From: a virus
Lineage: Duplodnaviria; Heunggongvirae; Uroviricota; Caudoviricetes
Virus record (IMG/VR): IMGVR_UViG_2711768004_000013
Length of the DNA: 45,436 nt
Direction: 5' to 3' (one strand)
Positions 7,101-42,470 of this stretch are shown piece by piece (position 1 is the stretch's first letter; the number at the start of each line of letters is the position of its first letter). The position numbers were made by a program, and so were the translations under genes. Below the pieces are notes generated by a model, which was not told the origin of the DNA, ran no database searches, and was given only the letters and a program-made list of their open reading frames with translations.

Positions 7101-7915
7101 GTATGGAGCTGATGGTTAAAGCGATGAAAATTCGAGTGGGTAATCCATTGCGAAAACTGGTTCTGATCAAGCTGGCTGATAATGCCAGCGATCAGGGTGA
7201 GTGCTGGCCCAGCTACCAGCATATTGCTGACCAGTGCGAAATTAGCAAACGTTCTGTGATGAATCATATTGCGGCCCTTTGTGAGTCCGGGCTGGTAAAA
7301 AAAGTCACCCGGAAAGGTGAAAAAGGTAACTCAAGTAATATCTATCTCCTTCATCTGGATGGTGCAGGAGATTCACTAGGGGGTAGTGCAAATAATTCAC
7401 TATCTGGTGCAGCAAATTCACCAGGTAGTGCAGGAGTTGCACCAGGGGGTAGTGCAGGAGATTCACCCAGAACCAGTCACTCTTTTGAACCAGTCAAAGA
7501 ACCAGTCAATGAACCAATAGCTGTTGGTGCATCAGTTGATGAGTCCGTGCGAGTTCGTTCAAACCGACCGGAATACTCTCCGGAGTTTGAGCAGGCATGG
7601 CTGGCATATCCCAAACGTGCTGGTGGCAATTCAAAATCTGCAGCCTTCAAAGCCTGGAAAGCCCGTTTGAATGAGGGAGTAAACCCCGAAACCATGCTGG
7701 AAGGTGTGAAACGCTACGCGGGATGGGTATCTGCGATGGGTAACAGCGGCACACAATTTGTGAAACAGGCTGTCACGTTCTTTGGTCCGGATCGTCATTT
7801 CGAAGAATTCTGGGAAGTTCCTGCGGTATCTGCAGCCAGACGCGAGGACCCGTACTTCAAAGCCAGTTACGACAACGTGGACTACAGCCAGATCCCGGCA
7901 GGATTCAGGGGGTGA
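7097..7915 (+). CDS. putative replication initiator / replisome organiser (N-terminal winged-HTH, Gly/Ser-rich linker)
   Basis: 272 aa; N-terminus LRKLVLIKLADNASDQGECWPSYQHIADQCEISKRSVMNHIAALCESGLV resembles HTH_36-type phage replication proteins; GGAGG upstream. Confidence 0.6.
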   Translation: MSMELMVKAMKIRVGNPLRKLVLIKLADNASDQGECWPSYQHIADQCEISKRSVMNHIAALCESGLVKKVTRKGEKGNSSNIYLLHLDGAGDSLGGSANNSLSGAANSPGSAGVAPGGSAGDSPRTSHSFEPVKEPVNEPIAVGASVDESVRVRSNRPEYSPEFEQAWLAYPKRAGGNSKSAAFKAWKARLNEGVNPETMLEGVKRYAGWVSAMGNSGTQFVKQAVTFFGPDRHFEEFWEVPAVSAARREDPYFKASYDNVDYSQIPAGFRG

Positions 7916-7917
7916 TC

Positions 7918-8406
7918 ATGAGTCTTTTGAATGAAGTTCAGAAATTCATTGAAGCCCATCCGGGGTGTACTTCCGGAGACATTGCGGATGCTTTTGCAGG
8001 TTACTCACGGCAGCGCGTTCTGCAGTCAGCAAGCAAGTTACGTCAGAGTGGGCGTGTGGCTCACCGTTATGAAGGAGATACACGCAGACATTTCCCACGC
8101 CTGACTGAGAGAGCGCAGGAGCCGGAACCACAACCAGTTCGTGAAACCAGACCTGTGCGCAATTTCTATGTCGGCACTAACGATCCCCGGGTGATTTTGT
8201 GCCTGACCCGCCAGGCGGAAGAACTGGAGTCCAGGGGCTTATACCGTCGTGCTGCAACGGTGTGGATGGCGGCATTCCGTGAAAGCCACTCCCAGCCAGA
8301 ACGAAACAATTTTCTGGCGCGTCGTGAGCGGTGCTTACGGAAAAGCAGCAAGCGCGCTGCATCGGGTGAAGAGTGGTATCTGTCAGGGAATTACGTGGGG
8401 GCTTAA
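7918..8406 (+). CDS. hypothetical protein with a PerC-like motif (possible transcriptional regulator)
   Basis: ATG at 7918 preceded by GGGGG; segment ESRGLYRRAATVWMAAF resembles PerC-family regulators; low certainty. Confidence 0.45.
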   Translation: MSLLNEVQKFIEAHPGCTSGDIADAFAGYSRQRVLQSASKLRQSGRVAHRYEGDTRRHFPRLTERAQEPEPQPVRETRPVRNFYVGTNDPRVILCLTRQAEELESRGLYRRAATVWMAAFRESHSQPERNNFLARRERCLRKSSKRAASGEEWYLSGNYVGA

Positions 8407-9059
8407 TGAGTAATAAATATTGCCAGGCGCTGGTGGAGCTGCGGAACAAACCAGCCCATGAACTGAAGGAAGTGGGCGATCAGTGGCGCACGCCGGATAA
8501 CATTTTCTGGGGAATTAACACCCTGTTTGGCCCGTTTGTTCTGGATCTGTTCACTGATGGTGATAACGCCAAATGTGCCGCTTATTACACTGCGGAAGAC
8601 AACGCGCTGGCGCATGACTGGTCTGAACGTCTTGCGGAGCTTAAAGGTGCTGCCTTTGGTAATCCCCCGTACAGCCGCGCCAGTCAGCATGAAGGGCAAT
8701 ACATCACCGGCATGCGTTACATCATGAAACATGCCAGTGCCATGCGTGATAAGGGCGGACGCTATGTTTTCCTGATCAAAGCTGCCACCAGCGAAGTGTG
8801 GTGGCCGGAAGATGCAGATCATATTGCTTTTATTCGCGGGCGTATTGGTTTTGAACTGCCTGCCTGGTTTATCCCGAAGGACGAGAAGCAGGTGCCGACA
8901 GGCGCTTTCTTCGCTGGTGCTATTGCTGTTTTCGACAAGACCTGGAAGGGACCGGCAATCAGCTACATCGGGCGCGATGAACTTGAGGCATGTGGTGAGG
9001 CGTTTCTGGCGCAGGTTCGCCAGCAGGCGGAAAAACTGGTCAGGGAGATGGCGGCATGA
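8406..9059 (+). CDS. phage DNA N6-adenine methyltransferase (Dam-like, orphan)
   Basis: 217 aa with an NPPY catalytic motif (AAFGNPPYSR); TAATG start/stop overlap with the upstream gene; no adjacent restriction endonuclease candidate. Confidence 0.75.
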   Translation: MSNKYCQALVELRNKPAHELKEVGDQWRTPDNIFWGINTLFGPFVLDLFTDGDNAKCAAYYTAEDNALAHDWSERLAELKGAAFGNPPYSRASQHEGQYITGMRYIMKHASAMRDKGGRYVFLIKAATSEVWWPEDADHIAFIRGRIGFELPAWFIPKDEKQVPTGAFFAGAIAVFDKTWKGPAISYIGRDELEACGEAFLAQVRQQAEKLVREMAA

Positions 9060-9382
9060 CGACGTTAACTCAATGCCAGCAGCAGGTGCTGGATATGCTG
9101 ATTTCTTACCAGAAAGAACGTGGCTTCCCGCCAACCAATCAGGAGGTGGCAACCATGCTGGGATACCGTTCAGTGAATGCAGCGGTGGAACATCTTCGCG
9201 CACTGGAGAAAAAAGGCGTCATCACGATAAAGCGTGGCATGGCCCGGGGTATCACTCTTCATACCGCGGTGAAGGACGACGACAGCGAGGCGGTCGGGAT
9301 TATCCGCTCACTGCTTGCCGGTGAGGAAAACGCCAGGCTGCGTGCAACCCACTGGTTACATGAGAGAGGCCTGAAAGTATGA
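9056..9382 (+). CDS. LexA-like DNA-binding-domain-only protein
   Basis: 108 aa; QQQVLDMLISYQKERGFPPTNQEVATMLGYRSVNAAVEHLRALEKKGVI closely parallels the LexA N-terminal winged HTH; no S24 peptidase domain follows. Confidence 0.65.
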   Translation: MTTLTQCQQQVLDMLISYQKERGFPPTNQEVATMLGYRSVNAAVEHLRALEKKGVITIKRGMARGITLHTAVKDDDSEAVGIIRSLLAGEENARLRATHWLHERGLKV

Positions 9383-9768
9383 AGCTGATCCTGCCTTTCC
9401 CGCCCAGCGTGAACACGTACTGGCGACACCCCAACAAAGGGGCATTTGCTGGTAAGAGCCTGATAAGCGCGGCGGGGCGAAAATTTCAGAGCGCGGCGTG
9501 CGCAGCAATAGTTGAGCAGTTACGTCGTCTGCCAAAACCAACGTCGGCACCTGCTTCAGTGGAGATCGTGTTGTTTCCTCCGGATAACCGGATCCGCGAT
9601 CTGGACAACTATAACAAGGCGCTGTTTGACGCCCTGACCCACGCGGGGGTGTGGGAAGACGACAGCCAGGTGAAAAGAATGCTGGTGGAGTGGGGACCGG
9701 TTATCCAGAAAGGGAAGGTCGAGATCACTATCAGTAAGTATGAGAAACCGGCGGGTGCAGCCGCCTGA
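9379..9768 (+). CDS. rusA: RusA-type Holliday junction resolvase
   Basis: 129 aa; LPFPPSVNTYWRH and DLDNYNKALFDALT motifs characteristic of RusA. Confidence 0.85.
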   Translation: MKLILPFPPSVNTYWRHPNKGAFAGKSLISAAGRKFQSAACAAIVEQLRRLPKPTSAPASVEIVLFPPDNRIRDLDNYNKALFDALTHAGVWEDDSQVKRMLVEWGPVIQKGKVEITISKYEKPAGAAA

Positions 9769-9787
9769 TCAAGAGGAGAAACGAAGT

Positions 9788-10597
9788 ATGAATAATCTGA
9801 TGGTCATTGATGGTATTGAAGTTCGTCGTGATGCTTATGGGCGTTACAGCCTGAACGATCTGCACAGGGCAGCCGGGGGAGAACAAAAAAACCGCCCGAA
9901 ATACTGGCTCTCCAATAAGCAAACCTGTGAATTGATTGAACAACTTTTCACCGAGGGTGGAATTCCGCCTCTGGAACAAAATCAACCAGTTAGCGTCATT
10001 AATGGCGGAAATAACCAGGGGACGTATGTCTGCAAAGAACTGGTGTATGCCTATGCAATGTGGATCAGCCCGTCATTCCATCTGAAGGTGATCCGTACTT
10101 TCGACATGGTAACCAGCGCACCGGAAAAATTATCCGGACAGGCTGCTGACAAGATGCAGGCTGGCGTGATCCTGCTGGACTTTATGCGCCGGGAATTAAA
10201 TCTGTCTAACTCATCAGTGCTTGGAGCCTGTCAGAAGCTTCAGGAGGCTGTTGGCTTACCGAATCTGGCACCGCGCTATGCCATTGATGCTCCTGCTGAC
10301 GCGCCTGATGGCTCAAGTCGCCCCACGCTGTCGCTGAGTGCACTGCTGAAGCAGTATGGTATCCGCCTGACGGCTAATCAGGCATATCACCAGATGGTGA
10401 AGCTGGGGATCGTTGAACAACGCGAACGATACAGCCGTACCGCGATTAACAACATCAAAAAATTCTGGTCGCTGACGGCGAAAGGCTGCATGTTCGGCAA
10501 GAACATCACCAGTCCTGCAAATCCGCGCGAGACGCAGCCGCATTTCTTCGAATCCCGATTCCCTGAGCTGTTAAAGCTGCTCGATACCGTTCATTGA
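9788..10597 (+). CDS. KilA-N domain protein (putative antirepressor)
   Basis: N-terminal MNNLMVIDGIEVRRDAYGRYSLNDLHRAAG fits the KilA-N domain; GAGGAG upstream. Confidence 0.6.
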   Translation: MNNLMVIDGIEVRRDAYGRYSLNDLHRAAGGEQKNRPKYWLSNKQTCELIEQLFTEGGIPPLEQNQPVSVINGGNNQGTYVCKELVYAYAMWISPSFHLKVIRTFDMVTSAPEKLSGQAADKMQAGVILLDFMRRELNLSNSSVLGACQKLQEAVGLPNLAPRYAIDAPADAPDGSSRPTLSLSALLKQYGIRLTANQAYHQMVKLGIVEQRERYSRTAINNIKKFWSLTAKGCMFGKNITSPANPRETQPHFFESRFPELLKLLDTVH

Positions 10598-10598
10598 G

Positions 10599-11594
10599 GT
10601 GACCGTGAGAGCACTACTGACCCCTGAAATTGCCCCGCGTATGGGGATCGTATTGTTCAGGCCAGGTTCAGAGCTGATGCCCCTGTTTATGCAGGGGCGT
10701 GTTCTGCTGGAGCCTGAGCCGGAACGTTATTCATCTTTCGCCAGTGGTGCCGTTCCGGCGGCATCACAACCGCTGGCGGATGATCCTGCCGTTCGGGCCG
10801 TGTTCCGCAATGAGGCAGTGATCCGTCGTGCTGGTGGCGTGGAATGTCTTGAAAGCTGGTTACTTCGTGAAAAAGGCTGCCAGTGGCCTCATTCCGACTG
10901 GCACAGCGAGAACATGACCACAATGCGACACGCTCCGGGCGCAATCCGTCTGTGCTGGCACTGCGATAACCAGCTGCGCGATCAGTTCACGGAACGGCTG
11001 GAATCAATGGCAACGGATAACTGTGCCCGCTGGGTGTTGTCTGTTGTGCGTCGGGATCTCGGTTTTGATGATAGTCACGTTGTGACAATGCCGGAACTGT
11101 GCTGGTGGCTGATTCGTAATGACCTGGCGGATGCCTTACCGGAAAGTGCAGCCCGTAAGGCACTGAGATTACCAAAGCCTGTTGTGCCGTCTGTCACCCG
11201 GGAAAGTGACCTTGTGCCTTCGGTTCCTGCCACCAGCATCATCCAGGATAAGGCAAAAAAGGTGCTGGCGCTGAAAGTGGATCCGGAGTCGCCGGAGTCT
11301 TTTATGTTACGCCCAAAACGCCGCCGCTGGGTTAATGAAAAGTACACGCGCTGGGTTAAGACACAGCCGTGTGCATGTTGTGGAAAGCCTGCTGATGATC
11401 CCCACCACCTGATAGGCCACGGTCAGGGTGGAATGGGTACAAAAGCGCATGACCTCTTTGTGTTGCCTTTGTGCAGAAAGCATCACGACGAGCTGCATGC
11501 GGATACCGTGGCATTTGAAGAGAAGTATGGCTCCCAGCTGGAGCTGATATTTCGTTTTATCGATCGTGCGCTGGCAATTGGCGTATTGGCGTAA
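10599..11594 (+). CDS. DUF968-like protein with HNH-like Cys/His C-terminus (GTG start; alternatives at 10605 or 10638)
   Basis: C-terminal CACCGKPADDPHHLIGHGQGG...CRKHHDELH Cys/His cluster typical of DUF968/HNH-like prophage proteins. Confidence 0.55.
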   Translation: MTVRALLTPEIAPRMGIVLFRPGSELMPLFMQGRVLLEPEPERYSSFASGAVPAASQPLADDPAVRAVFRNEAVIRRAGGVECLESWLLREKGCQWPHSDWHSENMTTMRHAPGAIRLCWHCDNQLRDQFTERLESMATDNCARWVLSVVRRDLGFDDSHVVTMPELCWWLIRNDLADALPESAARKALRLPKPVVPSVTRESDLVPSVPATSIIQDKAKKVLALKVDPESPESFMLRPKRRRWVNEKYTRWVKTQPCACCGKPADDPHHLIGHGQGGMGTKAHDLFVLPLCRKHHDELHADTVAFEEKYGSQLELIFRFIDRALAIGVLA

Positions 11595-11607
11595 GTGGAG
11601 AACGAGC

Positions 11608-12360
11608 ATGAACCTTGAAGCCTTACCAAAATATTACTCCCCAAAATCTCCAAAATTGAGCGATGACGCACCGGCGACAGGCTCAGGTGGTTTAACGATT
11701 ACGGATGTGATGGCTGCGCAGGGGATGGTGCAGTCGAAAGCACCGCTTGGGTTTGCCTTATTCCTGGCAAAAGTTGGTGTTCAGGATCCTCAATTTGCGA
11801 TTGAAGGTCTGCTCAATTACGCGATGGCACTGGATAACCCGACATTGAACAAATTGAGTGAAGAAACCCGGTTACAGATCATCCCTTACCTTGTGAATTT
11901 TGCCTTTGCTGATTATTCCAGGTCTGCGGCAAGTAAGGCTCGCTGTGAGCATTGTGCTGGTACTGGATTTCATAATGTATTGCGCGAAGTGGTGAAACAC
12001 TCCAGAAGCGGGGAATCTGTTATCAAGGAAGAGTGGGTGAAGGAACTATGTCAGCATTGCCATGGTAAGGGAGAAGTCAGCACAGCGTGCAGAGGGTGTA
12101 AGGGTAAAGGTATTGTCCTGGATGAAAAAAGAACCCGGCTTCATGGTGTGCCTGTTTATAAGATTTGTGGGCGTTGCAATGGCAACCGGTTTAGCCGTTT
12201 ACCAACCACACTGGCGCGGCATCATGTCCAGAAACTGGTACCGGACCTGACGGATTATCAGTGGTACAAAGGATATGCAGACGTTATTAATAAACTGGTT
12301 ACAAAGTGCTGGCAGGAAGAAGCGTATGCTGAATCGCAATTGAGAAAAGTGACAAGATAG
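11608..12360 (+). CDS. late-gene antiterminator Q-like protein
   Basis: 250 aa with a CxxC...CxxC zinc-finger-like cluster; positioned directly upstream of a strong promoter plus terminator (PR-prime / tR-prime arrangement). Confidence 0.7.
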   Translation: MNLEALPKYYSPKSPKLSDDAPATGSGGLTITDVMAAQGMVQSKAPLGFALFLAKVGVQDPQFAIEGLLNYAMALDNPTLNKLSEETRLQIIPYLVNFAFADYSRSAASKARCEHCAGTGFHNVLREVVKHSRSGESVIKEEWVKELCQHCHGKGEVSTACRGCKGKGIVLDEKRTRLHGVPVYKICGRCNGNRFSRLPTTLARHHVQKLVPDLTDYQWYKGYADVINKLVTKCWQEEAYAESQLRKVTR

Positions 12361-12391
12361 ATAATTTTCGCCGAAGATGTCGACGTGATAC

Positions 12392-12420
12392 TTGCATTTT
12401 TCAAAAAATATGGATAAGAT
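12392..12420 (+). promoter_or_regulatory. putative late promoter PR-prime
   Basis: TTGCAT, 17 nt, TAAGAT immediately downstream of the Q-like gene and upstream of an intrinsic terminator. Confidence 0.4.
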
Positions 12421-12464
12421 TTTCTCAACGATGGGCCTTGTATGTCTACCGTTGGTAAATGTCA

Positions 12465-12490
12465 AAAACCCGCCGCTGAGCGGGTTTTTT
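12465..12490 (+). terminator. tR-prime-like intrinsic terminator
   Basis: AAAACCCGCCGCTGAGCGGGTTTTTT. Confidence 0.6.
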
Positions 12491-12639
12491 GTGCCTGATG
12501 TCTCATGAAACTATGAAATGGATTGGTGCGTTAAACATTTTTTCTTATTATCTTTTAGATTTTGGAGAGATGGTTAACGTCTGTATTCCAGAAACTCGAT
12601 GGTTATTTAATAAATTAGTTTCAATGATGCTTCTAGGTT

Positions 12640-13065
12640 ATGACTGTAATGAAAAAGGTATTAATAGCAGCGATAGGTTTTTGTTTAGTTGGTTGTGCAG
12701 GTATGAAATTACCTGAGTATTCGCAAGTTAAAGCAAGTCCGTATTATACAGATTGCCGTGCGTTTGCCATGGATGTTTATAAAAATGATGGATACAGCAA
12801 AATTGCGAAAACTACTATCCTTAGCATGGATGATGTGAAAGCTAGATATATTGTGACAGGGTGTGTAGTTGCTATGGGGAAAAACACTGTAGAGGAAATC
12901 AAAGCTGATCTCTCTGCTAAAGGGAGTTCTTTTGGGCTTATCAGTGGAGCTTGTTCTAGTGCGGCATGTCGGGTTGATGTAGAGCAGCAAATGAACGCTT
13001 ATGTACTTGGTAGTTATTATGCTGCAAATAAAAAATTCCCGGATAAAATGAAAGCAGAGTTTTAA
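12640..13065 (+). CDS. lipoprotein (moron), function unknown
   Basis: Signal peptide with LVGC lipobox; AT-rich island bracketed by two near-identical terminators. Confidence 0.55.
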   Translation: MTVMKKVLIAAIGFCLVGCAGMKLPEYSQVKASPYYTDCRAFAMDVYKNDGYSKIAKTTILSMDDVKARYIVTGCVVAMGKNTVEEIKADLSAKGSSFGLISGACSSAACRVDVEQQMNAYVLGSYYAANKKFPDKMKAEF

Positions 13066-13140
13066 GCAAACCTTGTTTTCGATTATATGTCGAAGATAAA
13101 TGTTAGTAACGGCATAATAAGTAAATATATAGCTGTGATA

Positions 13141-13166
13141 GCAACCCGCCACTGAGCGGGTTTTTT
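13141..13166 (+). terminator. intrinsic terminator, near-duplicate of tR-prime
   Basis: AACCCGCCACTGAGCGGGTTTTTT; differs from the 12465-12490 copy at one loop position. Confidence 0.6.
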
Positions 13167-13264
13167 GTACCCGTAAACTTGGTGCAGTACAGTAAACACG
13201 CTGGTGGTCGTGAATACTGACTTTTTATCTTGCTGGCTTTTTAGACAAGAGTTATTGGTATGTC

Positions 13265-13492
13265 ATGTTAACCAGAAGGGAAAAAGACATGCTAAAACAG
13301 CAAGATATGACAGAAACCGCCGCCGCAGTCCTTCATTTCTTACCTGCTGACAAGTGGGTAACGCCACGCATGATGACGAGAACTACCGGAGTAAGCGAAG
13401 CCCGGTGCCAGTTAATACTGACTCAGTTAGTTCTGGCGGGTCTGGCGAAGGATAACGGCGGGTACGGGAATAAATTCAGACGCTGCCAGTAA
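13265..13492 (+). CDS. small hypothetical protein (start ambiguous: 13265, 13289 or 13307)
   Basis: 75-aa ORF with no recognisable motif. Confidence 0.35.
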   Translation: MLTRREKDMLKQQDMTETAAAVLHFLPADKWVTPRMMTRTTGVSEARCQLILTQLVLAGLAKDNGGYGNKFRRCQ

Positions 13493-13642
13493 TGGCGGTT
13501 TCCTGCTGTGAAAATGGGCGGCTGGTGGGTGTTGGTAGCACCTGCCAGCCATTCGCTCATGCTTACTGGTCACAAGCGAACCACGGCCCACTGCTTTAGC
13601 GCAAAAGCAGAGTGAGCCTACCAGAGTTACGCTTACTGATCC

Positions 13643-14695
13643 ATGAAAAATACTGTAAAAATAAACAGTGTTGATTTAATCAACGCTGATTGCCTGCATT
13701 TTATTCAGTCCCTGCCTGATGATTCCATTGACCTGATTGTTACCGATCCGCCTTACTTCAAGGTGAAACCCAACGGTTGGGACAATCAGTGGAAAGGGGA
13801 CGAAGATTACCTTAAGTGGCTGGACCACTGTCTGGCCCAGTTCTGGCGGGTGTTGAAACCTGCCGGAAGCCTTTACCTGTTCTGTGGGCATCGCCTGGCA
13901 TCTGATATTGAGATCATGATGCGTGAACGTTTCAACGTGCTTAACCATATCATCTGGGCGAAGCCGTCCGGACGTTGGAATGGGTGTAATAAAGAAAGTC
14001 TGCGCGCATATTTTCCTGCCACAGAGCGCGTTCTGTTTGCTGAACATTACCAGGGGCCATATCGCGGCAAAAGTGACGGCTATGCGGCAAAAGAAAGGGA
14101 ACTCAAACAGCACATAATGGCACCGCTGATATCGTATTTCAGGGATGCTCGTGCCGAACTGGGTATAACGGCAAAACAAATTGCCGAAGCCACAGGTAAG
14201 AAAAATATGGTTTCCCACTGGTTTGGTGCCAGTCAGTGGCAGTTGCCGAATGAGGCTGACTATCGGAAGTTACAGGCACTGTTTTCCCGTATAGCGGCAG
14301 AGAAGTTTCAGGAACAACAACTGGAACAACCACACCACCAGCTGGTGGCATCTTATGATTCACTGAATCGTAAATATTCTGAATTGCTGGATGAGTTTAA
14401 ATCTCTCCGGCGCTATTTCTCCGTATCAGTCTCCGTGCCTTATACCGATGTCTGGATGCATAAACCCGTTCAGTTCTACCCGGGGAAACATCCGTGTGAG
14501 AAACCGGCGGATATGCTCAGGCAAATAATCAATGCCAGTAGTCGACCAGGTGATCTGGTTGCTGATTTTTTTATGGGATCCGGTTCCACAATAAAAGCAG
14601 CAATGGCGCTGGGGCGTCGGGCCTTAGGTGTTGAGCTTGAGTCAGAGCGGTTTAATCAGACAGTGAAAGAGATAAACGAGCTGGTGGGGAAATAA
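13643..14695 (+). CDS. DNA methyltransferase (N6/N4 type, DPPY motif; orphan)
   Basis: 350 aa; N-terminal IVTDPPYF catalytic motif and C-terminal [11 protein letters not shown]-binding motif; no nearby endonuclease candidate. Confidence 0.8.
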
Positions 14696-14701
14696 TCTGG
14701 T

Positions 14702-14723
14702 GGCCACGTCAGGTGGCCTTTTT
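14702..14723 (+). terminator. intrinsic terminator after the methyltransferase
   Basis: GGCCAC-GTCAG-GTGGCC followed by TTTTT. Confidence 0.55.
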
Positions 14724-14762: not shown

Positions 14763-14914
14763 ATGAAATCCATGGATAAGTTAACAACGGGTGTCGCCTA
14801 TGGCACCTCAGCAGGTAGTGCCGGGTACTGGTTTTTACAGTTGCTCGATAAAGTCACGCCCTCACAGTGGGCGGCAATAGGTGTGCTGGGTAGTCTGGTA
14901 TTTGGCTTGCTGAC
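14763..14914 (+). CDS. phage-21-type pinholin (S21-like), 3-prime end lost in the assembly gap
   Basis: [50 protein letters not shown] closely matches the phage 21 pinholin N-terminus as I recall it, including the dual-start MKSM motif. Confidence 0.65.
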
Positions 14915-15323
14915 NNNNNNNNNNNNNNNNNNNNNNNNNNNNNNNNNNNNNNNNNNNNNNNNNNNNNNNNNNNNNNNNNNNNNNNNNNNNNNNNNNNNNN
15001 NNNNNNNNNNNNNNNNNNNNNNNNNNNNNNNNNNNNNNNNNNNNNNNNNNNNNNNNNNNNNNNNNNNNNNNNNNNNNNNNNNNNNNNNNNNNNNNNNNNN
15101 NNNNNNNNNNNNNNNNNNNNNNNNNNNNNNNNNNNNNNNNNNNNNNNNNNNNNNNNNNNNNNNNNNNNNNNNNNNNNNNNNNNNNNNNNNNNNNNNNNNN
15201 NNNNNNNNNNNNNNNNNNNNNNNNNNNNNNNNNNNNNNNNNNNNNNNNNNNNNNNNNNNNNNNNNNNNNNNNNNNNNNNNNNNNNNNNNNNNNNNNNNNN
15301 NNNNNNNNNNNNNNNNNNNNNNN
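14915..15323. other. assembly gap (N-run)
   Basis: 409 consecutive N. Confidence 0.95.
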
Positions 15324-32122: not shown

Positions 32123-35100
32123 ATGGGTAAAGGCAGCAGTAAGGGGCATACCCCGCGCGAAGCAAAGGACAACCTGAAGTCCACGCAGTTGCTGAGTGTG
32201 ATCGATACCATCAGCGAAGGGCCGGTTGAAGGTCCGGTGGATGGATTAAAAAGCGTGCTGCTGAACAGTACACCGGTGCTGGACAGTGAGGGGAATACCA
32301 ACATCTCTGGTGTCACGGTGGTGTTCCGGGCAGGTGAGCAGGAACAGACACCGCCGGAGGGATTTGAATCATCAGGTTCCGAGACGGTACTGGGTACGGA
32401 AGTGAAATACGACACGCCGATCACCCGGACCATCACGTCGGCAAACATTGACCGTCTGCGCTTTACCTTCGGTGTGCAGGCACTGGTGGAAACCACCTCA
32501 AAGGGGGACAGGAATCCGTCGGAAGTCCGCCTGCTGGTTCAGATACAACGTAATGGTGGCTGGGTGACGGAAAAAGACATCACCATTAAGGGCAAAACCA
32601 CCTCGCAGTATCTGGCCTCGGTGGTGGTGGGTAACCTGCCGCCGCGCCCGTTCAATATACGGATGCGCAGGATGACGCCGGACAGCACCACAGACCAGCT
32701 GCAGAACAAAACGCTCTGGTCGTCATACACCGAAATCATCGATGTGAAACAGTGCTACCCGAACACGGCACTGGTCGGCGTGCAGGTGGATTCGGAGCAG
32801 TTCGGCAGCCAGCAGGTGAGCCGTAATTATCATCTGCGCGGGCGCATTCTGCAGGTGCCGTCGAGCTATAACCCGCAGACGCGGCAATACAGCGGTATCT
32901 GGGACGGAACGTTTAAGCCAGCATACAGCAACAACATGGCCTGGTGTCTGTGGGATATGCTGACCCATCCGCGCTACGGCATGGGGAAACGTCTTGGTGC
33001 GGCGGATGTGGACAAATGGGCGCTGTANNNNNNNNNNNNNNNNNNNNNNNNNNNNNNNNNNNNNNNNNNNNNNNNNNNNNNNNNNNNNNNNNNNNNNNNN
33101 NNNNNNNNNNNNNNNNNNNNNNNNNNNNNNNNNNNNNNNNNNNNNNNNNNNNNNNNNNNNNNNNNNNNNNNNNNNNNNNNNNNNNNNNNNNNNNNNNNNN
33201 NNNNNNNNNNNNNNNNNNNNNNNNNNNNNNNNNNNNNNNNNNNNNNNNNNNNNNNNNNNNNNNNNNNNNNNNNNNNNNNNNNNNNNNNNNNNNNNNNNNN
33301 NNNNNNNNNNNNNNNNNNNNNNNNNNNNNNNNNNNNNNNNNNNNNNNNNNNNNNNNNNNNNNNNNNNNNNNNNNNNNNNNNNNCATTGCCCGTTACGGTC
33401 GTAACGTCACGAAGATGGATGCTTTTGGCTGTACCAGCCGGGGGCAGGCACACCGCGCCGGGCTGTGGCTGATTAAAACAGAACTGCTGGAAACGCAGAC
33501 CGTGGACTTCAGCGTGGGTGCCGAAGGGCTTCGCCATGTACCGGGCGATGTCATTGAAATCTGCGATGATGACTATGCCGGTATCCGCACCGGCGGGCGC
33601 GTGCTGGCGGTAAACAGCCAGACCCGGACGCTGACGCTCGACCGTGAAATCACGCTGCCATCTTCCGGCACCACGCTGATAAGCCTGGTTGACGGGCAGG
33701 GGAGTCCGGTCAGCGTGGAGGTTCAGTCCGTCACCGACGGCGTGAAGGTGAAAGTGAGCCGTGTTCCTGACGGCGTTGCTGAATACAGCGTATGGGGGCT
33801 GAAGCTGCCGACGCTGCGCCAGCGCCTGTTCCGCTGCGTGAGTATCCGTGAGAACGACGACGGCACGTATGCCATCACTGCCGTGCAGCATGTACCGGAA
33901 AAAGAGGCCATCGTGGATAACGGGGCGCACTTTGACGGCGACCAGAGCGGCACGGTAAATGGTGTCACGCCGCCAGCGGTGCAGCACCTGACCGCAGAAG
34001 TCACCGCAGACAGCGGGGAATACCAGGTGCTGGCCCGCTGGGACACGCCGAAGGTGGTGAAGGGCGTGAGCTTCCTGCTTCGCCTGACCGTGGCAGCGGA
34101 TGACGGCCGTGAGCGGCTGGTCAGCACGGCCCGGACGACGGAAACCACTTACCGCTTCACACAACTGGCTCTGGGGAACTACAGGCTGACAGTCCGGGCA
34201 GTAAATGCGTGGGGGCAGCAGGGCGATCCGGCGTCGGTATCGTTCCGGATTGCCGCACCGGCAGCGCCGTCGCGGATTGAGCTGACGCCGGGCTATTTTC
34301 AGATAACCGCCACGCCGCATCTTGCGGTTTATGACCCGACGGTACAGTTTGAGTTCTGGTTCTCGGAAAAACGGATTGCGGATATCAGGCAGGTTGAAAC
34401 CACAGCCCGCTACCTTGGCACGGGGCTGTACTGGATAGCCGCCAGTATCAATATTAAGCCGGGCCATGATTATTACTTTTATATCCGCAGTGTGAACACC
34501 GTCGGCAAATCAGCATTCGTGGAGGCTGTCGGTCGGGCGAGCGATGATGCGGAAGGTTACCTGGATTTTTTCAAAGGCCAGATAACCGAATCCCATCTCG
34601 GCCAGGAGCTGCTGGAAAAAGTCGACCTGACGGAGGATAACGCCAGCAGACTGGAGGAGTTTTCGAAAGAGTGGAAGGACGCCAACGATAAGTGGAATGC
34701 CATGTGGGGCGTCAAAATTGAGCAGACCAAAGACGGCAAACATTATGTCGCGGGTATTGGCCTCAGCATGGAGGACACGGAGGAAGGCAAACTGAGCCAG
34801 TTTCTGGTTGCCGCTAACCGTATCGCGTTTATTGACCCGGCAAACGGGAATGAAACGCCGATGTTTGTGGCGCAGGGCAACCAGATATTCATGAATGACG
34901 TGTTCCTGAAACGCCTGACGGCTCCCACCATTACCAGCGGTGGAAATCCGCCGGCATTTTCCCTGACACCAGACGGAAAGCTGACCGCTAAAAATGCGGA
35001 TATCAGCGGTAATGTGAATGCAAATTCAGGGACGCTCAACAATGTCACGATTAACCAGAACTGTACGATTAAGGGCATGCTGGAGGCGACCCAGGTCAGA

Positions 35101-40320: not shown

Positions 40321-40390
40321 NNNNNNNNNNNNNNNNNNNNNNNNNNNNNNNNNNNNNNNNNNNNNNNNNNNNNNNNNNNNNNNNNNNNNN
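40321..40390. other. assembly gap (N-run)
   Basis: 70 consecutive N. Confidence 0.95.
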
Positions 40391-40405: not shown

Positions 40406-41776
40406 CTATGATATCCCTGAAATGTCCTCTTCAAGCTCTTTTACTGATTTCGCAATTTTAAATTTAAATTTTCTCTCTATTTCACTATTGCTAAGTTTTT
40501 TTTCATTCTCTTTCCCTATCCACATAGAAACAATTTCTCGTTTCTGAGATATATGTAGATTGTCAAAGTTAGGTATGTATTTAAAAGTCTCCGCTCTACC
40601 CCTGCGGAGTTCATAGAAAGTTTTAATCAAAGACTTTGGTTTTATTTCTGATGAAAGGCCGAATCGGCGGATAAGATTATTGATCGTATGATTAACAGCT
40701 CGAAGTTGAGCTGTTGACGTTATTTGTGAGAAGTACGATACCCATCCCAATCGTTTACCTTCAAACACACATCCCGTAATTCTAAGATTTAGTTTCCACT
40801 GACAATATGCAACAGCTCGTTCTTTATCGCGCTTATTTTTAGCTTGTAGTAGAGCGTGTCTATATGCAGTAAAAATTTTTGCTAAGGATGACTCAAATCT
40901 AAGAATGCTCTCATGTTTTATCAATAATTCTCGATTTTTTATGTGGTAGCCCAAAAAGTTGAAACTTTCATCCAAGCTGCCTACTTTGGATTTTGAGTTC
41001 TCTTCATTTAATGGATGTGGGTTTAAATTTAATGATTGAAGCTTATCAATGATATGAGAAGCTATTTTTGTTGCTTGATATTTTGGTGTTAAAATAAGAA
41101 TGTCATCAACGTATCGCATGTACCATATGTCATGCATTTTATTGATTTCATCATCGAAATTAGATAGTGATATTTCAGCTAAAATGTTTGATATCGCTAA
41201 TCCCTGAGGTACTCCTCTGGTATTATTAGGGATACCTTTGCTTCCTGTGGTTCCACTTACAGTAGGCACGATTAATGATGATGTTATTAACTGTCTAATT
41301 TCTTTTTTTCTAATTTTATTTTTTATTGCATTAATTATCAATTTATGTTCAATTGAAGGATAGAAACTTTTAAGATCTATTTTTGCATATTCAGCATATA
41401 GACTGTTGTTTAATGCTTCTTTCAATGAGTCAATTACTGTATGTGGTAGTTTTAATCTGGACTTAGGATATATTTCCGTAAGGCATTCACAGAGAGCTCT
41501 AAGAGTAATTCTGTCCCTAGCAGTTGGTATGGAAATCTGTCTGGGTGTAGAGTTAGCGCCTTTAGATATTAATTTTTCTTTATATGCTGTAAATTTGTAA
41601 TTGCCAGAATTAACCTTTTCAAAAATGAAAGTGATCTCATTTTTTATTGTCAAATCAAGTTTTGATGGGCGAATCCGATCTATGCCAATCGCTCCTGATT
41701 CTTTGATTTTTTCAGAGTATACTTTTAGAAGATTTTTTTTCGAGAATGACTTTTTAAAAATTCTGCTTGCAGTCAT
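40406..41776 (-). CDS. reverse transcriptase (retron / group-II-like catalytic motifs; probable defence-associated RT)
   Basis: 456 aa from the ATG at 41776 (ORF track extends to a TTG at 41782); motifs in order: GIDRIRP, RQISIPTARDR, IDLKSFYPSI (motif A), GVPQGLAISNILAEI (motif B), YMRYVDDILIL (motif C, YVDD), FNFLGYHI (motif E), RITG in the thumb; AT-rich; overlaps the upstream membrane-protein gene by 23 nt. Confidence 0.8.
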   Translation of the reverse strand: MTASRIFKKSFSKKNLLKVYSEKIKESGAIGIDRIRPSKLDLTIKNEITFIFEKVNSGNYKFTAYKEKLISKGANSTPRQISIPTARDRITLRALCECLTEIYPKSRLKLPHTVIDSLKEALNNSLYAEYAKIDLKSFYPSIEHKLIINAIKNKIRKKEIRQLITSSLIVPTVSGTTGSKGIPNNTRGVPQGLAISNILAEISLSNFDDEINKMHDIWYMRYVDDILILTPKYQATKIASHIIDKLQSLNLNPHPLNEENSKSKVGSLDESFNFLGYHIKNRELLIKHESILRFESSLAKIFTAYRHALLQAKNKRDKERAVAYCQWKLNLRITGCVFEGKRLGWVSYFSQITSTAQLRAVNHTINNLIRRFGLSSEIKPKSLIKTFYELRRGRAETFKYIPNFDNLHISQKREIVSMWIGKENEKKLSNSEIERKFKFKIAKSVKELEEDISGIS

Positions 41777-42305
41777 AGTCAATCCAAAGATATATTAATG
41801 GGAGTATATAAAGTGCGGCAGTAATAAATATTCGAAGTAATATCCATAAAATAACAATTATTTTTTCTTTTTGTGTGGGGATCCTCGTCTTAAGTCCAAC
41901 TTGAGTTACCCTTGAAATTTTATCATCTATGTCACGGTGATTCTCAACCTCATTGAGCAAATTAAAATATTTTTCTTTCTGTTCAAGAGATAACTGTTGA
42001 CTGGTGGTAATGTCAAAATAGAGTCGCTGTAGTGCAATATAATTCCTTCTCATGGCTATTGCTCGACCACGAAAATCTAGGTTAGATACGATCAGAGAAA
42101 TACCCAGTAGAGCCACTGAAAGTATCGCCGCAACGACATCTGTATTATCTCCTAGAACCTTTGGAAATCGCAACGTTACAATTGAAAGTACCGCACTCAA
42201 TATAGCATACCAAACGAGGATAAATTGAGAGTGTTTTTCAAGCCATTCTAGTCGATGGTGCGCTTGGATACGTGCTTTATATGTAAACCAAATATTGTCA
42301 TGCAT
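41754..42305 (-). CDS. small multi-TM membrane protein (2TM / SLATT-like), putative effector of the RT system
   Basis: 183 aa; two adjacent hydrophobic helices near the N-terminus, a predicted helical soluble stretch, and a C-terminal hydrophobic helix; AAGGA 6 nt before the ATG at 42305. Confidence 0.6.
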   Translation of the reverse strand: MHDNIWFTYKARIQAHHRLEWLEKHSQFILVWYAILSAVLSIVTLRFPKVLGDNTDVVAAILSVALLGISLIVSNLDFRGRAIAMRRNYIALQRLYFDITTSQQLSLEQKEKYFNLLNEVENHRDIDDKISRVTQVGLKTRIPTQKEKIIVILWILLRIFITAALYILPLIYLWIDYDCKQNF

Positions 42306-42470
42306 AAAAGATCCTTTTTAAAAGCGGAAGGGGCAGGATATATTGGAACCGTTGAACATCCTGCCCGGCAGGATCAGTGAGCATAAGCTCAACAGTAAAA
42401 TATTACTGTTCATTATCAGAGCCGCCCTTGCATGCGCAAGAGGAAAAACCTGCCCCATCCCTTTGAATTA
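42306..42470 (-). ncRNA. candidate structured non-coding RNA / 5-prime leader of the RT operon (retron msr-msd-like or DRT-ncRNA-like)
   Basis: ORF-free interval with a possible promoter (TTGACT, 17 nt, TGTAATAAT on the minus strand), distal inverted repeats GGGGCAGG / CCTGCCCC, and several internal hairpins. Confidence 0.3.

Follow-up and report, generated by a model that had tools for sequence, protein, structure and literature searches.

In this work, we focus on a stretch of 45,436 nucleotides (nt) from a virus of the class Caudoviricetes (IMG/VR record IMGVR_UViG_2711768004_000013), which we will call the window. We will particularly focus on two DNA methyltransferase genes that it carries and on a conserved structured element that lies just upstream of the second one. 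A first-pass annotation, made from the letters of the DNA, had proposed a Dam-like enzyme with an NPPY motif in the early rightward operon and an unrelated DPPY-type enzyme in the late region, and the coordinates (Table 1), families and motifs of both genes were borne out. We read them, with good confidence, as two independent orphan N6-adenine methyltransferases set in lytic-cycle transcription units, the early one being a probable GATC-methylating Dam and the late one a probable non-specific anti-restriction enzyme. The arrangement and both enzyme families have already been described, and the pair itself is already in the literature and in the databases; the structured element is the only part that may be new.

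The late gene encodes a protein of 350 amino acids (aa), of which residues 29-341 match PF01555 (N6_N4_Mtase) with 145.9 bits for a cut-off of 26.7. DPPY stands at residues 35-38 and FMGSG at residues 310-314, which is the motif order of the beta class, and the protein has all the motif features of the M.EcoGII family, namely an N-terminal DPPY, a central target-recognition domain, a C-terminal FxGxG and a length of about 350 aa. It also belongs there by similarity: over the full length, central domain included, 281 of 349 residues are identical to those of M.EcoGII with 2 gaps (81%, accurate to about one percentage point, the comparison sequence being taken from a machine-read table in PMC11551740). 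The orf48 product of phage SfV is 98% identical to the late enzyme and PhiOS31_p25, from Serratia phage vB_SspS_OS31, is 64% identical; near-identical or similar copies of the gene are found in 1255 of 5426 complete E. coli genomes.

Several members of this family have been studied experimentally. M.EcoGII modifies adenine whatever the sequence context; it is silent in its own lysogen, and its constitutive expression is deleterious (PMC5778455). PhiOS31_p25 made plasmid DNA resistant to many enzymes sensitive to N6-methyladenine (m6A) and has an extremely relaxed adenine specificity (PMC7556043), and the same paper cites a similar relaxed adenine methylation for PhiARM81ld_p56, which, like PhiOS31_p25, is a homologous late-region methyltransferase. 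Anc291 and SUPREM, two reconstructed ancestors of the M.EcoGII clade, are active and largely non-sequence-specific (PMC11551740). The late enzyme of the window is likewise predicted from its sequence to methylate adenine in almost any context. Like M.EcoGII and M.EcoGI of E. coli O104:H4 C227-11 (Murray et al. 2018, PMC5778455), which have the same motifs and domain in 349-350 aa, it is a prophage-borne orphan, and the closest phage homologues of M.EcoGII (93% identical, in Stx2a phages) are likewise placed between Q and the lysis or stx genes; the late enzyme differs from M.EcoGII in 19% of its residues. The non-specific adenine methyltransferases Hia5/Hin1523 and the Mom function of phage Mu are also phage-borne and confer broad protection against many restriction enzymes (PMC3299994), as we propose for the late enzyme. 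However, Hia5/Hin1523 belong to the alpha class (PMC5778455) and Mom relies on a different chemistry; the likeness is one of analogy, not of membership.

The early gene encodes a Dam of 217 aa, which scores 156 bits against PF05869 (Dam; cut-off 28.1) and 255.6 bits against TIGR01712 (phage_N6A_met; cut-off 97.05). Both scores lie above the curated cut-offs and place it in the Dam group of T1, HP1, VT2 and SfV; its catalytic NPPY is intact at residues 86-89. The product of the SfV dam gene is identical to it at 215 of 217 residues (99%), and in the GenBank record of SfV this gene is labelled a DNA adenine methylase, with -35 and -10 signals of its own marked just upstream. Allison et al. 2002 reportedly describe multiple DNA methylases in SfV and the experimental confirmation of orf-41 as a functional Dam. 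M.EcoVT2Dam (VT2-Sakai orf32) is listed as GATC-specific (PMC6602927), and the phage T1 / HP1 Dam group to which it belongs shares PF05869, a small size, the NPPY motif, a location in the nin region and a reported GATC specificity with the early Dam, although M.EcoVT2Dam is shorter (175 aa) and only 31% identical. Given the near-identity to SfV dam and the specificity listed for M.EcoVT2Dam, the early enzyme is predicted to methylate GATC. Near-identical copies are found in 2120 of 5426 complete E. coli genomes. A sequence search of the PDB with this Dam returned no relative of solved structure, the paper on Hia5/Hin1523, considered here as possible relatives, names neither HP1, VT2 nor Pfam (PMC3299994), and the SfI paper does not mention methylases. 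The ATG of dam overlaps the stop codon of the PerC-like gene and its own stop codon overlaps the ATG of the LexA-like gene, so that Dam is embedded in a translationally coupled rightward early operon, where the first-pass annotation had put it. Compared with IMG/VR loci such as L017 (5410-5413, against 8403-8409 of the window), dam behaves as a clean presence/absence cassette.

The two enzymes belong to different Pfam families and have no detectable pairwise similarity (BLASTP E=0.077), and at the level of sequence they are indeed unrelated; both are Rossmann-fold amino-methyltransferases. Their combination is old, since the same two families are found in the same order in the Hafnia phage yong2. 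In SfV (GenBank U82619), dam (orf41) and orf48 are the same two genes, in the same order, with the same spacing and the same terminators; the window differs from SfV by an additional moron that comes with a second copy of the terminator, after Q and ahead of the late gene, by its integration at dusA and by its cargo. Serratia phage OS31 shares the layout running from Q to the methyltransferase and the holin, together with the conserved upstream element, but infects another host genus and has no PF05869 Dam annotated in the region compared. The pairing was surveyed in 70 IMG/VR loci with a late enzyme 99-100% identical and at least 6 kb of upstream sequence. Dam is present in 50 of these loci, and in 16 of the 70 the PerC-like and LexA-like genes are joined at a 3- or 18-bp gap in its place; the pairing is not obligatory.

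The late gene stands downstream of Q in the order Q, terminator, moron, copy of the terminator, 67-aa open reading frame (ORF), non-coding stretch of 150 nt, methyltransferase, terminator and holin. The first-pass annotation had it behind a terminator of its own; this stands for the upstream side, where there are in fact two tR'-like terminators, and is refined by a further one directly after the gene. The two upstream terminators flank the moron, which is absent in SfV, and the duplication suggests that a moron was inserted at the terminator and left this trace. The 67-aa ORF is present in all of the 70 near-identical IMG/VR loci and also in Stx2a, phiP27 and Hafnia phages (52% identity with its counterpart in the Stx2a phage WGPS2); it was not seen in the annotation of N15, and its only hints of a winged helix (MarR/TrmB) are sub-threshold. 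The order Q, terminator, small ORF (not always present), methyltransferase, then holin or tRNAs-stx, is the same in SfV, Stx2a WGPS2, phiP27, N15, Hafnia yong2 and Serratia OS31, and the late gene occupies the moron slot that holds stx in Shiga-toxin (Stx) phages. Its place behind terminators and downstream of Q fits with silence in the lysogen and expression on induction, and we infer that it is expressed only from the Q-antiterminated late transcript. Expression from such a transcript would bring the enzyme to the progeny DNA shortly before it is packaged.

Nucleotide-level conservation of the 150-nt stretch that separates the small ORF from the late gene extends to phages whose enzymes are only 55-75% identical. 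This stretch contains an element of about 120 nt with three helices (P1, 13520-13550; P2, 13552-13580; P3, 13586-13617), which ends 17 nt before the ATG of the late gene (17-20 nt across loci). It is found across phages whose enzymes are 55-100% identical, and also in the loci L085, L086 and L087 and in about 60 IMG/VR loci. The publication of M.EcoGII (PMC5778455) describes neither this element nor the small ORF. When anchored segments of 62 dereplicated representatives were folded one sequence at a time, that is, independently of any alignment, the mean z was -2.93 and 90% of the values were below -2. The P1 hairpin was recovered directly 3' of an invariant UGGGC in 62 of 62 representatives, through 56 distinct P1 sequences, and the P2 and P3 hairpins were present in most of them.

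A covariance model, made from 20 sequences and a hand-drawn structure, matches 63 of 82 representative sources including the window, once in each, on the plus strand and just 5' of the gene; throughout the 45 kb of the window the element is its sole match (127.8 bits). In the model alignment, 84% of the cells are paired, a share that falls to 29-42% once the partners are slid, both sides have changed in 28 of the 32 pairs, and double-change cells number 277, compared with 21-47 in the slid controls. The observed values were not reached in any of 500 shuffles, with the reservation that the alignment was fitted to the covariance model and that all these counts therefore lean towards it. RNAalifold, run on plain MAFFT alignments of the leader, gave only the invariant pairing UGGGC:GCCCA, because the covarying arms were misaligned. 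This pairing was considered as an enclosing helix P0 and set aside, both blocks being invariant and in competition with the base of P3, which covaries. A pseudoknot UGUGA:UCACA was dropped because it overlaps P2. A leader peptide was also ruled out: in the reading frame that opens with the AUG of AAAUGGGC, the stop codons are scattered from 4 to more than 50 codons. A search of 7.5 kb against Rfam 15 placed no match with E<=1 on the element, a search with 261 nt gave only chance-level matches (E 4-6), and six homologous loci gave no match on it either. The prophage small RNAs AgvB, AsxR and Pas are sited elsewhere in the late region and their papers omit this gene; they were set aside as candidates for the element.

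The strand on which this structure acts is a separate matter. In 53 of the 62 cases the more stable fold is that of the minus strand, and A.C cells are more numerous than G.U cells (147 against 56, almost entirely from P2), which rules out assigning the plus strand from G.U pairs. On the minus strand, the invariant GCCCA is followed by a run of U; no sigma-70 consensus promoter was found on this strand near the methyltransferase start, where weak hexamers only can be seen by eye. The element may be a sense leader, a cis-antisense RNA adjoining the start codon, or both. The Shine-Dalgarno sequence of the late gene is weak or absent, and the constant distance of 17-20 nt between the element and the start codon of this toxic gene points, by inference, to post-transcriptional control. 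It is possible, though we would put it somewhat below an even chance, that this is a structured regulatory RNA that has not been described before and serves M.EcoGII-family genes exclusively, as a sense 5' leader or as a cis-antisense RNA next to and possibly over the translation start, which would keep the toxic methyltransferase off until late lytic growth. The control could perhaps be an autoregulation by the methyltransferase, an enzyme known to bind and methylate RNA.

The reading that the element is no regulatory RNA at all, but is conserved as DNA (for example as a site bound by a protein, or as a joint where modules recombine) or as a short coding region, seems unlikely to us. It would account for the fold and the A.C/G.U data, which favour no definite strand, and for the absence of covariation in the invariant blocks UGGGC, GCCCA and GAGCCUA, and an AUG-initiated ORF is present in the window. 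This ORF, however, is not conserved, as the scattered stops show, and a plain DNA-binding site normally comes without helix covariation, while the pairing of P1-P3 has been kept through many both-side changes and the helices are recovered at the same places by single-sequence folding among the 62 representatives.

Two functional analogies can be drawn for a regulatory RNA at this place. In phage Mu, the late modification gene mom is toxic, and its translation is controlled by the small Com protein, which binds a hairpin in the leader; com-mom is a useful analogy for the small ORF and possible structured sense leader found here. If the minus strand is the active one, the element would resemble IS10 RNA-OUT, P22 sar and the antisense RNAs that act as type I antitoxins, in being a stable structured antisense RNA near the start of a toxic gene. 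The latter likeness is functional, by analogy: there is no sequence or Rfam relationship, and an overlap with the start codon has to be assumed, whereas the element ends 17 nt upstream. Around the element, three further observations can be made. A GATC site (13637-13640) lies at -6 to -3 of the late-gene ATG (CTGATCCATG), as it does in many, not all, of the homologous loci. A small hairpin is formed by codons 4-11 of the late gene (13653-13675, ACUGU...ACAGU) and has the compensatory variant ACUGG...CCAGU in other phages. In Serratia phage OS31, a segment upstream of the element (L087:3215-3276) weakly resembles isrK, with 27 bits and an E of 0.047, short of the gathering score; it may correspond to a short late-promoter transcript.

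Taken together with the terminators and the gene order, a two-step scheme can be proposed for the lytic cycle. The early Dam would be transcribed with the rightward early (nin-like) operon and would keep the fast-replicating phage DNA fully Dam-methylated, topping up GATC methylation where replication outpaces the host Dam; in lambda, only about half of the GATC sites are methylated (PMC3299994). Production of the late enzyme would depend on read-through by Q-modified RNA polymerase and go along with that of the lysis and morphogenesis proteins; the enzyme would hypermethylate the progeny genomes before packaging, thereby blunting m6A-sensitive restriction in the next host. Since it is toxic, it would be kept silent in the lysogen by the terminators, and its gene would probably also be controlled by the structured element abutting the start codon. 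Self-protection of the progeny DNA during lytic growth is the best-supported role of the late enzyme, because its gene lies behind terminators after Q and because close homologues are silent in lysogens. Those in the C227-11 lysogen gave no methylation signal (PMC5778455, PMC4659465), nor did those in lysogens of the O111 strains 95JB1/95NR1 (PMC6602927), and the EC958 homologue was judged inactive by reverse transcription PCR (PMC4659465).

Several points weigh against this scheme. The 19% divergence from M.EcoGII could in principle alter the specificity of the late enzyme, and the consensus scan found no late promoter, a weak candidate being visible by eye at 12392-12420. The counts of GATC in the window (166 sites, 0.76x the Markov expectation, like other palindromes) are neither notably depleted nor enriched, and a frequency so unremarkable gives no independent sign of Dam-linked selection.

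Three other explanations of the enzymes have to be compared with this one. The late enzyme could be sequence-specific, like its distant beta-class relatives YhdJ (ATGCAT), CcrM (GANTC) and M.RsrI; the best NCBIfam and PDB matches are indeed site-specific enzymes, and some copies are named 'site-specific DNA-methyltransferase' in RefSeq. These matches are low-scoring, however (PRK11524 at 110 bits for a cut-off of 292, RsrI, CcrM), while the enzyme is far closer to the non-specific M.EcoGII and PhiOS31_p25, the central target-recognition region included, and both reconstructed ancestors that were tested in the clade are largely non-sequence-specific; we regard this explanation as quite improbable. 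Still far less credible is that the methyltransferases provide the modification side of a restriction-modification system, or of a defence system like it, in which RusA or the DUF968/HNH-like protein would be the nuclease. RusA and the DUF968 protein are ordinary phage nucleases that lie between the methyltransferase genes, and PHROGs label the second one 'HNH endonuclease'. The first-pass annotation had seen no adjacent endonuclease candidate, which holds true for restriction enzymes: no PADLOC model matches any neighbour gene, DUF968 and RusA included, no restriction endonuclease is annotated anywhere in the prophage, and the cognate endonuclease gene that should stand beside the methyltransferase in a type II system is not there. 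RusA belongs to a junction resolvase family. DUF968 is kept in loci with and without Dam, even where the latter is cleanly absent, which argues against a restriction-modification relationship, and in phiSTEC1575-Stx2k the match to the module runs through Dam and DUF968 and stops before the late-gene region. Moreover, a non-specific methyltransferase would have no meaningful cognate restriction site.

The first-pass annotation had also left open an epigenetic control of the lysogen next to anti-restriction protection. That one or both enzymes regulate host or prophage genes in the lysogen is improbable in our view, if a shade less so than a sequence-specific late enzyme. The -35/-10 signals just upstream of dam in the SfV record would agree with it, and so would the detection of the Phi24B-encoded Dam in lysogen cultures and the requirement of host Dam for stable 933W lysogeny (PMC3342100). 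Yet the early Dam is translationally coupled inside a repressor-controlled rightward operon and would merely duplicate the GATC methylation of the host Dam, and the late gene lies behind two terminators, with close homologues that are silent in lysogens and toxic when expressed. An epigenetic role in the lysogen is thus unlikely for the late enzyme and would be redundant for the early Dam, which may nevertheless act in the lysogen. Anti-restriction protection is the better supported of the two proposals, the enzyme being of the M.EcoGII family and in a Q-dependent late position, and the best reading is that the late non-specific enzyme is the main anti-restriction device.

The genes discussed above belong to a lambdoid prophage. 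Over the 7 kb compared, the window is a near base-for-base match to E. coli strain A14, whose counterpart is a lambdoid prophage inserted at dusA. In the layout based on A14, a CI/LexA-like repressor gene is read leftward and the rightward early operon runs from a Cro-like gene to the Q-type antiterminator; the lysis cassette, lambda-like head and tail genes and the integrase adjoining dusA lie downstream. The same 7-kb stretch is matched at about 96-98% identity by mEp460, SfV, Ayreon and a series of Stx2c phages, and the module with both methyltransferases is found again in mEp460, SfV, Stx2a/Stx2c phages and a Hafnia phage; most of the whole module is matched in 304 of 5426 complete E. coli genomes. 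The features of the locus are collected in Table 1.

Table 1. Coordinates of the methyltransferase genes, the structured element and their neighbours in the window
Feature	Position	Strand	Basis
PerC-like regulator gene (yfdN homologue)	7912..8406	+	PF06069 PerC; RefSeq annotation of near-identical A14 locus
Early phage Dam, N6-adenine methyltransferase, predicted GATC specificity	8406..9059	+	PF05869, TIGR01712; NPPY
Small protein with LexA-type DNA-binding domain	9056..9382	+	PF01726; start/stop overlaps (translational coupling to Dam)
RusA Holliday-junction resolvase, not a restriction enzyme	9379..9768	+	PF05866; no PADLOC match
DUF968 protein with HNH-like motif (YdfU family), ordinary nin-region gene	10605..11594	+	PF06147, weak PF16784, phrog_96 'HNH endonuclease'; no PADLOC match
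Q-type late antiterminator	11608..12360	+	PF03589; RefSeq annotation
tR'-like intrinsic terminator, about 100 bp after Q	12464..12492	+	Hairpin and U run, -13.9 kcal/mol; homologous site annotated as terminator in SfV
Lipoprotein-like moron of 141 aa, low G+C, absent from SfV	12640..13065	+	phrog_4748, function unknown
Second tR'-like terminator, near-exact copy, closing the moron insertion	13143..13168	+	Terminator scan and comparison
67-aa ORF (phrog_331) upstream of the late gene	13289..13492	+	Weak winged-helix hints
Three-helix element of about 120 nt	13505..13625		Covariance-model hit, covariation, single-sequence folds
Late beta-class N6-adenine methyltransferase, M.EcoGII family, predicted non-specific	13643..14695	+	PF01555; identity to M.EcoGII, SfV orf48 and PhiOS31_p25
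Intrinsic terminator directly 3' of the late methyltransferase gene	14702..14723	+	Homologous site annotated in SfV and N15
Holin gene (essD), start of the lysis cassette	14763..14978	+	RefSeq annotation of near-identical locus; N from 14915

Some further features of the window can be mentioned. Runs of N at 14915-15323, 33028-33383 and 40321-40390 hide parts of it, and the first of these covers the 3' end of the holin gene and the next gene (ydfR-like). The antisense ORFs at 8403-9203 and 13676-14218 have no family match. At about 40459-42358, on the minus strand and beside the integrase, a gene with a reverse-transcriptase domain overlaps a gene with a SLATT domain, and this pair is likely to be defence cargo of the prophage. 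A gene for a Panacea-domain protein is found at the left end of the prophage (1-573) and may be a sign of cargo of the toxin-antitoxin type; the coordinates of both were mapped from the A14 annotation.

The methyltransferase pair is a standard lambdoid module, and its presence predicts that the progeny of this prophage would be heavily modified with m6A. Such a modification bears on the host range and on the restriction barriers to the spread of the prophage, including that of Stx phages with the same module, and on the way in which single-molecule real-time (SMRT) or Nanopore methylomes of induced cultures are to be read. M.EcoGII is a widely used tool enzyme, and the structured element upstream of its relatives could matter more than the pair: if true, a dedicated RNA control of a methyltransferase that is toxic and acts on DNA and RNA would add a new case of post-transcriptional control in phages.

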